Part shown: positions 34,447 to 35,946 of the stretch, in pieces
Layout of the letters: each line of letters starts with the position of its first letter
Numbering within the stretch: the stretch's first letter is position 1
Position numbers and translations under genes: made by a program
Assembly (NCBI GenBank): GCA_000002445.1
Contig: CP000067.1
Location: forward strand, 288,001-352,000
DNA: 64,000 bases
Direction of reading: 5' to 3'
DNA from: Trypanosoma brucei
Taxonomy: Eukaryota
Notes under the pieces: generated by a model
Databases searched by the model: none
Told to the model about the DNA's origin: nothing
What the model saw: only the letters and a program-made list of their open reading frames with translations

Positions 34447-34602
34447 GCCGGCCACCTCAACGTGGTGCCAGGGTCCAGTACCCCGTCTCATCAGGGGAAG
34501 CCAAGAGCCAGCAGCGTTCCTTTCATGGGGAACACTGCTTTGCTCCGGCTACGGCATCAAAAAGCACAGGGATCAGCAGCGTCTTTCTGGGACACCGTTT
34601 TT
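34447..34602 (+). ncRNA. Candidate small RNA, copy B (diverged paralogue of copy A; possibly a pseudogene or chimera)
   Basis: The first ~100 nt match 30076-30175 with only a few substitutions. The 3' half is diverged and ends in T5 (34598-34602). A conserved block 'ccctgggcacgtgttct.gtgct.tcggc' follows the T-run in both copies. No tRNA gene within 400 bp upstream. Confidence 0.4.
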
Positions 34603-35946
34603 CATTTGTTGGTCCCTGGGCACGTGTTCTAGTGCTGTCGGCGGCGGAGCTTTAGAGGCCACAAACCTTAGGATCCAAGCGTTTCTACTCACACTACATT
34701 CATCCCCCGTATACGTCAAATCCGCTTTGGGAACCCTCATTGAAAGAAGCAGCTCCAAGATCCAAAGCGGCTTGAGCGTCACGCCCTCGGCATCCGGCGC
34801 CACAGTGGGATTCTTCAATTTCGTTTGACGTATCACTATTGTGGACCTTGATTGCTTTTCTTTTGGTAGGCGGGAGGGCAGTCACTAAAAGTTTAAAAGT
34901 TTCATTCATCCACTTTTTGAGGGTCGTTTTGTAAGTGAGCCTTTCCCTCCGTCGGATGGCGTTGTTCTTCGACCTCCCTCCGAAGCGGCTGTTGACTAAC
35001 CCCTTTAAGTTTGGTATTTTTCTGTCTGATGCCGGGGACTAAACCCCCTTTTGGCACCGGAAACAGGCACTGTCACATACAGAATAGCTTGGGACGTCGG
35101 CTAAATCACGCTGTTTACACCACACACACCCCCAACGAGTTGCAGAACTGTTTCTTCACCTTTGCGCCGCTCTGTCTATTGAAGCGAAACCCACCTTCCT
35201 TTTTCCATGCAGGGAGGCGGTGACGGATGAGCACTTTTCATTACCTTATACATTCGGGGGTTAACGGAAACACCAAACAAAGTCCTTCCATGTTTATTGT
35301 CTAATTTTTGTGTGGCAGTCCACTCCGACGTTCCACTCCCTATGATATGTAGTATCGAGGGATGCCTCTGTTTTGTTATTCCTTATCTTTCACGTAATTT
35401 CCCCCCCCCCCCTGAGTTGGCCTTTTAATCCTCTCGATTGAGCATCAATGTGCATTTTTGTTTTCTAACTCTTCAGTTCCCTGAGACGTGCTACCATCAG
35501 ACAGAATGGTGGAAATTAACTCCCACTATTTGCTTGCGCCACCCCAGTTCTGCTTAACTTTTTCAACCCTTCTATTTTTACATCCAAATGGTTGAGGAAG
35601 TAAGCTGACGTAACATGAACTGAATATCACACAAAAAAGCATAAGTGTATCGATCAGCCTTTGTAAAGCAGCCGATAACGTTTCCTCTTAGCGGCCCCCA
35701 GGCACTTAAAGGCGAGTTTGGAGGCCCAATTTTCATTTTCAAGGTAGGTGGGTCATGCTTCTTAAATATCAAAGAATACAAGTATGGTTGCTTGCTCCTG
35801 AGCTAAAGTGAGCCAACTGCGGACAAAAGGCTGCCTTTTTCTCGGCATATCCACTATAACCAACATCCTAGGCGGGAGGAAGCCATCCACATTGGACTGA
35901 ATCCCCCCCCCCAAATGATTGGGCCGAGGGTTCGCTAACATCTCCG

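Follow-up and report, generated by a model that had tools for sequence, protein, structure and literature searches.

A 64,000-nt stretch of Trypanosoma brucei DNA (GenBank contig CP000067.1; hereafter the window) contains two copies, A and B, of a short element on either side of a strain-variable interval. A sequence-only reading had offered two explanations for the pair, namely two functional isoforms of a small RNA sharing a 5′ domain, or a recombinational chimera. We asked which of these accounts for the two copies, to what family the element belongs, and why its 3′ part differs between them.

Extent and identity of the repeat pair

Copies A (30066-30273) and B (34435-34645) are colinear, with a single 1-nt indel. 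The repeat runs from element nt 1 to 5 up to about nt 211 in both copies and is larger than first described. The near-identity noticed between 34447-34546 and 30076-30175 was confirmed (93/100, ungapped), and its 40-nt core, GCCGGCCACCTCAACGTGGTGCCAGGGTCCAGTACCCCGT, occurs only at 30076 and 34447 in the whole window (expected by chance, 0). The following ~55 nt had been called unrelated; in fact they align gaplessly and colinearly at 37/56 positions (66%), a value reached by none of 20,000 shuffles. Since A and B are colinear throughout, the 3′ half is diverged, not replaced. A repeat search returned the pair as a 165-nt match at 82% and a 53-nt match at 81%, offset by one base. Once this 1-nt offset is allowed for, the block following the T-run is identical at 27 of 30 positions, as its earlier description as conserved implied, and similarity between the copies ends abruptly past this 30-nt block. 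The hairpin agcagcgttcc/ggaacactgct is likewise present, with 10/11 pairs in B and 8/11 in A, and the two changes in copy A disrupt pairs and are not compensatory. The features of the locus are collected in Table 1.

Table 1. Features of the locus in window coordinates, and identity of element segments to the consensus of five canonical ingi/RIME copies
Feature	Position	Strand	Basis or remark
tRNA-Pro(CGG)	29914-29985	-	ARAGORN and Rfam; divergent from copy A
Copy A body	30066-30258	+	Resident older ingi/RIME-type 5′ fragment; signature canonical, diverged past nt ~100
Copy A tail	30259-30273	+	Canonical-like nt ~195-211
Strain-variable interval between copies	30274-34434	+	Megablast and junction alignment against other assemblies
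ESAG1-family ORF, 331 aa	31468-32463	+	Pfam PF03238 ESAG1, E = 1.1e-114
Copy B body	34435-34626	+	Near-canonical Tbingi/RIME 5′ end, element nt 1 to ~190
17-nt block CCCTGGGCACGTGTTCT	34614-34630 (A: 30242-30258)	+	Identical in A, B and single-copy alleles
Copy B tail	34627-34645	+	Resident diverged nt ~191-211; 9/19 vs consensus, 17/19 vs T. b. equiperdum single copy
U6 snRNA	37763-37858	-	Rfam
Element nt 1-10			A 6/10, B 6/10; degenerate
Element nt 11-79			A 68/69, B 67/69
Element nt 80-110			A 26/31, B 30/31
Element nt 111-170			A 40/61, B 57/60
Element nt 193-211			A 14/19, B 9/19, resident single-copy allele 7/19

Both copies belong to the ingi/RIME family

From their sequence, both copies can be identified as 3′-truncated solo 5′ ends of ingi/RIME, the most abundant retroposon of T. 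brucei and of the non-LTR type; the kind of feature is already known. Both carry the Pr77/79-bp signature and the beginning of the element's reading frame. Searching full texts for the core sequence led to the L1Tc Pr77 oligonucleotide printed in PMC1874656, whose positions 11-77 correspond to the first ~68 nt of A and B, with 94-97% identity over nt 11-45. The signature is common to ingi-clade retroposons (PMC3820030). In the body of copy B it is followed by the start of the ingi reading frame (MPATSTWCQGPVPR...SLGTC), and an ORF that happens to span this copy (34379-34828) retrieved seven T. brucei ORFs (consensus MPATSTWCQGPVPRIIGGSQEPAAFLSWGTLLCSGYGIIQHRDQQRLAGTPFFICRSLGTCQRAISSIIRTKMLLSGDVEENPGP) and aligns with the ingi N-terminal ORFs P0022-P0028 as far as ...SLGTC. 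The loci of these matches are on other chromosomes, and two of them have Exo_endo_phos_2 and RVT_1 ORFs immediately downstream, which identifies those two as full ingi elements. Canonical copies also include the published RIME-LAMP F3 primer sequence.

Compared with five canonical ingi/RIME copies on other chromosomes, B (34445-34626) is 93-96% identical over element nt ~9-190, and A (30070-30273) is 81-84% identical up to element nt ~211, past which neither copy resembles them. Position-wise identity was scored against a consensus built from these five copies (Table 1). The sequence-only reading had placed a swapped 3′ domain in copy B. At nt 111-170 it is copy A that departs from the consensus (40/61) while B does not (57/60), and the domain is diverged, not swapped. 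In the ingi reading frame the T-run GTTTTTCATTTGT provides the codons for P-F-F-I-C and the so-called post-terminator block those for S-L-G-T-C; given this homology to canonical copies, the T-run, the hairpin and the post-terminator block are ordinary ingi/RIME 5′ sequence. A decayed 2A (DVEENPGP) coding region was also considered for the T-run and CCCTGGGC block and was rejected, since 2A lies downstream of the block in canonical copies.

The likeness to Tbingi/TbRIME, including the signature and the N-terminal reading frame, thus covers nt 1 to ~190 in B and extends to ~211 in A. Unlike those elements, A and B are solo 5′ fragments whose homology stops ahead of the SSIIRTKMLLSGDVEENPGP region, without the 2A peptide, the endonuclease/RT ORF or the RIME-B 3′ half, and they are followed by no poly(A) and flanked by no 12-mer repeat or target-site duplication. 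Retroposon remnants are usually 5′-truncated, not 3′-truncated. Searches with 3.4 kb of ingi (tblastx and blastn) found no further remnants in 24.8-40.2 kb, so A and B are fragments, not elements; the flanks as a decayed full-length element (DIRE) were rejected on the same searches. The GTTGG upstream of B is displaced by 3-5 nt from the register of the ingi4 upstream motif of PMC3820030. A protein search starting from the L1Tco endonuclease region, with an E cut-off of 1e-10 that may be too strict, returned T. cruzi and T. melophagium only and no Tbingi.

The first ~77 nt of A and B equal the Pr77/79-bp hallmark, except that the first 10 nt are altered in both. As immobile, decayed ingi-related remnants at a transcription-unit boundary they also recall DIRE and SIDER sequences, and the A type fits the description of a degenerate remnant. 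They differ from these in being far shorter than DIREs, in having no ORF remnants and in showing no similarity to TbSIDER1 or TbSIDER2 outside the signature; the signature was likewise the only match to L1Tco, Tvingi and LmSIDER2 (PMC4035085 supplement). The TbSIDER2 sequence of the same supplement starts with a tRNA-like stretch (CCCTGGTTTAGTGGTTAAGTAGAG...GATCGATCCCCG) before its Pr77-like part, and by eye this head looks tRNA-derived.

One-copy and two-copy alleles in T. brucei-group assemblies

The corresponding loci of other assemblies were reached through the flanking LicD-like and LRR proteins. The locus is polymorphic: T. b. gambiense DAL972 (GCA_000210295.1) and T. b. equiperdum (GCA_003543875.1) have one element and lack a 4371 bp interval, while GCA_001457755.2 contains the A-to-interval junction and the left part of the interval. 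The single-copy alleles combine an A-type body with a B-type tail and the downstream flank of B, and copy A is 97% identical to the single copies of T. b. gambiense DAL972 and T. b. equiperdum.

In GCA_001457755.2, copy A (2761-3015, - strand of the locus) is 95% identical to its counterpart in the window and the surrounding 7.7 kb is 99.4% identical. Its signature stem is changed at several positions, and nt 80, 99 and 176 show canonical or B-type bases; patchy gene conversion could account for this, as could short-read assembly noise contributed by other ingi/RIME copies.

The exact protein sequence of the ESAG1-family ORF within the interval is not on record. The interval as a processed retrogene was considered and rejected, there being no spliced-leader sequence anywhere in the window. 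An A15 run (34151-34165) followed by a T9 run (34180-34188) is present in the interval ~270 nt upstream of copy B, and no spliced-leader remnant was found near these runs.

The two copies are reciprocal mosaics

Diagnostic sites were defined as the positions at which the single-copy alleles differ from the canonical consensus. In nt 11-192 all 29 sites of copy A are of the resident type and 25 of the 29 in copy B are canonical; in nt 197-211, with 8 sites, A has the canonical base at 5 and B the resident one at 7. By these sites, each copy combines part of a resident diverged fragment with part of a canonical one, in reciprocal fashion, which bears out the recombinational chimera proposed earlier, together with the remark that uniform neutral decay of a duplicate does not account for the mosaic. 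The change of type falls across the 17-nt block CCCTGGGCACGTGTTCT, and the exchange took place inside it. The tail of copy B is continuous with the downstream flank common to all strains, and the DNA following the tail of copy A is found in the two-copy allele only. An older diverged fragment of the same family sits beside tRNA-Pro, and copy B is very probably near-canonical ingi/RIME sequence from nt 1 to ~190 joined at the 17-nt block to the ~20-nt end of this older fragment, with copy A as the reciprocal product.

We propose that one homologous crossover integrated a stretch of DNA, possibly a circle or an ectopic copy, on which an ESAG1-family gene was linked to a canonical 5′ fragment of ingi/RIME. 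One crossover with an incoming canonical fragment yields the reciprocal pattern directly, which favours integration. At nt 191-194 the canonical sequence is CCAG, but A and B both read TTCT. This shared TTCT is not what one simple crossover would give if the donor were canonical throughout; it calls for a non-canonical donor or for heteroduplex repair, in which a short heteroduplex restored to the resident type would leave both copies with TTCT. Among the few T. brucei loci compared, none was a donor locus. The resident fragment is itself a mosaic, with a signature at 68/69 and a middle that is 34% diverged, which points to earlier conversion by other genomic copies or to a subfamily origin. 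The succession of conserved 5′ part, diverged middle and conserved end would thereby go back to recombination and gene conversion involving the numerous ingi/RIME copies of the genome, not to selection on an RNA.

A competing account, which we consider rather unlikely, takes the two-copy state as ancestral and derives the single-copy state by deletion, through A and B crossing over unequally within the 17-nt block, the body of B having earlier been overwritten by canonical gene conversion. Such a crossover in the identical block would give exactly the hybrid of T. b. gambiense and T. b. equiperdum (A body, B tail and flank), the TTCT common to A and B as against canonical CCAG is in keeping with it, and the canonical or B-type bases of copy A in GCA_001457755.2 could be patchy conversion. 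The account nevertheless requires two separate partial conversions to reach the reciprocal pattern, for which a single crossover with an incoming fragment suffices. Moreover, at either side the repeat ends where ingi homology ends, as expected of homology-driven integration and not of an arbitrary tandem duplication. We infer that the event was an integration, although a two-copy ancestor with deletion elsewhere would give the same single-copy hybrid.

The outcome is a direct repeat of ingi/RIME 5′ fragments, produced by homologous recombination, on either side of a strain-variable ESAG1-family gene. A retroposon fragment of ~200 nt by a tRNA/U6 cluster has thus provided the homology through which strains of the T. 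brucei group gained or lost this gene, a neat, small case of repeat-mediated variation in gene content and of modest interest as such. It resembles Alu-type non-allelic homologous recombination in that an indel polymorphism is bounded by two interspersed-repeat copies with hybrid repeats at the junctions. It differs in its ~200-nt retroposon 5′ fragments, its 17-nt identical exchange block and its ESAG1-family payload.

Copy A as a possible companion of tRNA-Pro

In trypanosomatids, the tRNA-companion Pol III genes (U6, 7SL, U3 and vault RNA) have a divergent tRNA ~95-100 nt upstream. Copy A is divergent to tRNA-Pro at roughly the right distance and T-runs follow the copies. The distance from tRNA-Pro is ~80 nt to the start of the ingi homology of A and 90 nt to 30076, as against 99 nt for U6 and tRNA-Thr in the window. 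Unlike companion genes, A and B are absent at the T. cruzi locus, match no RNA family and are retroposon-derived, and B has no tRNA nearby. The earlier observation on this last point holds over the whole region, with no tRNA between 29985 and 37958, that is, within 4.4 kb upstream of copy B.

The resident A-type fragment might be transcribed by Pol III, starting at ~30085 and stopping at one of two T-runs, T4 (30172-30175) or T10 (30223-30232); the product, a sense-strand ingi 5′ RNA, would feed the RNAi response to ingi/RIME or act as its decoy, with B as a silent by-product. This is improbable. Copy A differs from the single copies of T. b. gambiense and T. b. equiperdum by ~2.6% over 231 nt, including 36 nt of upstream flank, and flank divergence is similar (~2%), so copy A shows no extra constraint. 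Pol III reading out from the tRNA-Pro companion position would probably stop at the T4 run, which is lost in copy B; U6 in the window ends at such a run.

Copy B as a possible cis-element or recent insertion

Domestication of copy B as a cis-element, in which Pr77 would act as an internal Pol II promoter or as an HDV-like ribozyme shaping expression of the ESAG1-family gene or of downstream transcripts, is very improbable. Pr77-type ribozymes and promoter activity are documented in relatives (PMC1874656, PMC4035085), and the CCACC...CGTG downstream-promoter-element region described for Pr77 (PMC4748587) is kept in both A and B. B also retains CCCTG at its 5′ end and CAGGG at nt ~33-37. Between the two, most of the first helix of an HDV-like fold of the L1TcRz type, a nested double pseudoknot, could form (nt 1-7, CCCUGGC/GCCAGGG). 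On the other hand, B has an insertion of 2 nt after nt 5 and substitutions in nt 6-10, and A has lost CCCT and carries CCATGG in place of CCAGGG. Reporter constructs with the initial 500 bp of ingi, with RIME A or with the initial 55 bp are reported to have yielded no expression in T. brucei (PMC1874656, discussion). The ESAG1 ORF is 2 kb upstream of copy B, which is oriented away from it, and the feature is missing in other strains. No Rfam ribozyme family had a hit in 29.5-39 kb.

Copy B might also be an independent, recent RIME/ingi retrotransposition that later lost its 3′ part, and its body is indeed as close to canonical copies (93-96%) as those reportedly are to their own consensus (TbRIME median divergence 4%, PMC3820030). 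This origin is nonetheless very unlikely, since poly(A) and a 12-bp target-site duplication are missing, the upstream ingi4 motif is out of register (PMC3820030), tblastx shows no ingi ORF remnants downstream of B, and the tail is of the resident type and ends where that of A does.

The proposed two isoforms of a small RNA

The reading of A and B as two isoforms of a Pol III small-RNA gene, A driven via the divergent tRNA-Pro and B via internal elements resembling A and B boxes, has in its favour the spacing from tRNA-Pro, the T-runs and the folding, copy B being more stable than its shuffles (z = -3.2) and copy A less markedly so (z = -1.8). The ingi 5′ end is known to be structured, and the folding of A and B fits that structure and is not evidence for a separate RNA gene. 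Other chromosomes carry the entire unit, T-run, hairpin and post-terminator block included, as canonical ingi/RIME sequence, and it also occurs within full-length ingi. Rfam searches over 29.5-39 kb returned only the tRNAs and U6, both at the gathering threshold and at E up to 10, and nothing for the Vault model. In an RNAalifold alignment of eight copies, 0 of 51 pairs were changed on both sides (covariation term +0.3), and the T4 run at 30172-30175, like the terminator of U6 here, would halt Pol III well short of the proposed 3′ end. Together with the absence at the T. cruzi syntenic locus, the pair-breaking hairpin changes of copy A and its lack of extra constraint, this leaves the two-isoform gene hardly credible.

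Vault RNA (TBsRNA-10) was considered and rejected as an identity for the element: the window contains nothing that matches its published forward primer, GGGCGCAAGGATTTCGGATAC (PMC12547018, Table S1), with up to 3 mismatches allowed, in line with the absence of an Rfam Vault hit. Neither this primer nor the reverse primer AGGGCGATTGCGGCTTCGGACAG resembles the A/B element by eye. The related suggestion that copy B has a vault-like internal promoter, or is a pseudogene of a tRNA-linked small RNA, likewise finds no support, copy B being an ingi/RIME 5′ end. Neither copy is likely to be a small-RNA gene, and at most both would contribute to ingi/RIME-like transcripts. The apparent two-isoform small RNA is thereby removed as a false lead, a retroposon fragment to be masked and not pursued as a gene.

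The 3′ end of copy B had further been matched to a third candidate element downstream of tRNA-Tyr. An 11-nt identity, TGGGACACCGT, followed by a T-run does exist at 38356-38373, but the match is weak (reached in 12 of 2000 shuffles; blastn E ~0.5) and involves canonical ingi sequence, and we treat it as coincidence. The third candidate (38280-38373, +) is divergent to tRNA-Tyr, ~99 nt from the 5′ end of that tRNA, and terminates in T6. Rfam gives no match for it, its folding is no more stable than that of shuffles (z = +0.33), and its counterparts in T. b. gambiense DAL972 and T. b. equiperdum show indels and no more than 93-95% identity; it may not be a gene.

Genomic setting and synteny

The T. 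cruzi, T. vivax and T. congolense loci were fetched through orthologues of the neighbouring PDCD2-like gene. In T. cruzi (GCA_015033655.1), U6 (1448-1556) and tRNA-Pro (1608-1679) are separated by 51 nt with no element between them; this adjacency makes all T. brucei DNA between U6 and tRNA-Pro, the resident fragment included, lineage-specific. [quoted passage not shown]

The T. cruzi cluster (locus 1118-1679) is tightly packed in the order tRNA-Asn(-), tRNA-Thr(-), U6(+) and tRNA-Pro(+). The cluster in the window also holds tRNA-Thr and tRNA-Tyr, the latter in place of the T. cruzi tRNA-Asn, and 3.3-7.7 kb are inserted between U6 and tRNA-Pro. The T. congolense contig (GCA_000227395.2) ends in a different retroposon 5′ end (13-85, -; CCCTGGCAACGCCGGAAGCCTCAGCGGGG...), ~3.7 kb upstream of the LicD-like gene and with the orientation seen in T. 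brucei. Accumulation of retroposons at this boundary seems not to be confined to one species.

Within the T. brucei-specific DNA between copy B and U6, an ORF at 35947-36753 (-) has no Pfam match and no similarity to ingi; the T. b. gambiense DAL972 and T. b. equiperdum assemblies annotate it as a gene of 184 aa. Elsewhere in the window, at 19654-21300, ~47 tandem 30-nt units (90-94% alike) lie inside a long minus-strand ORF (18804-21530), whose protein would therefore contain a 10-residue repeat.
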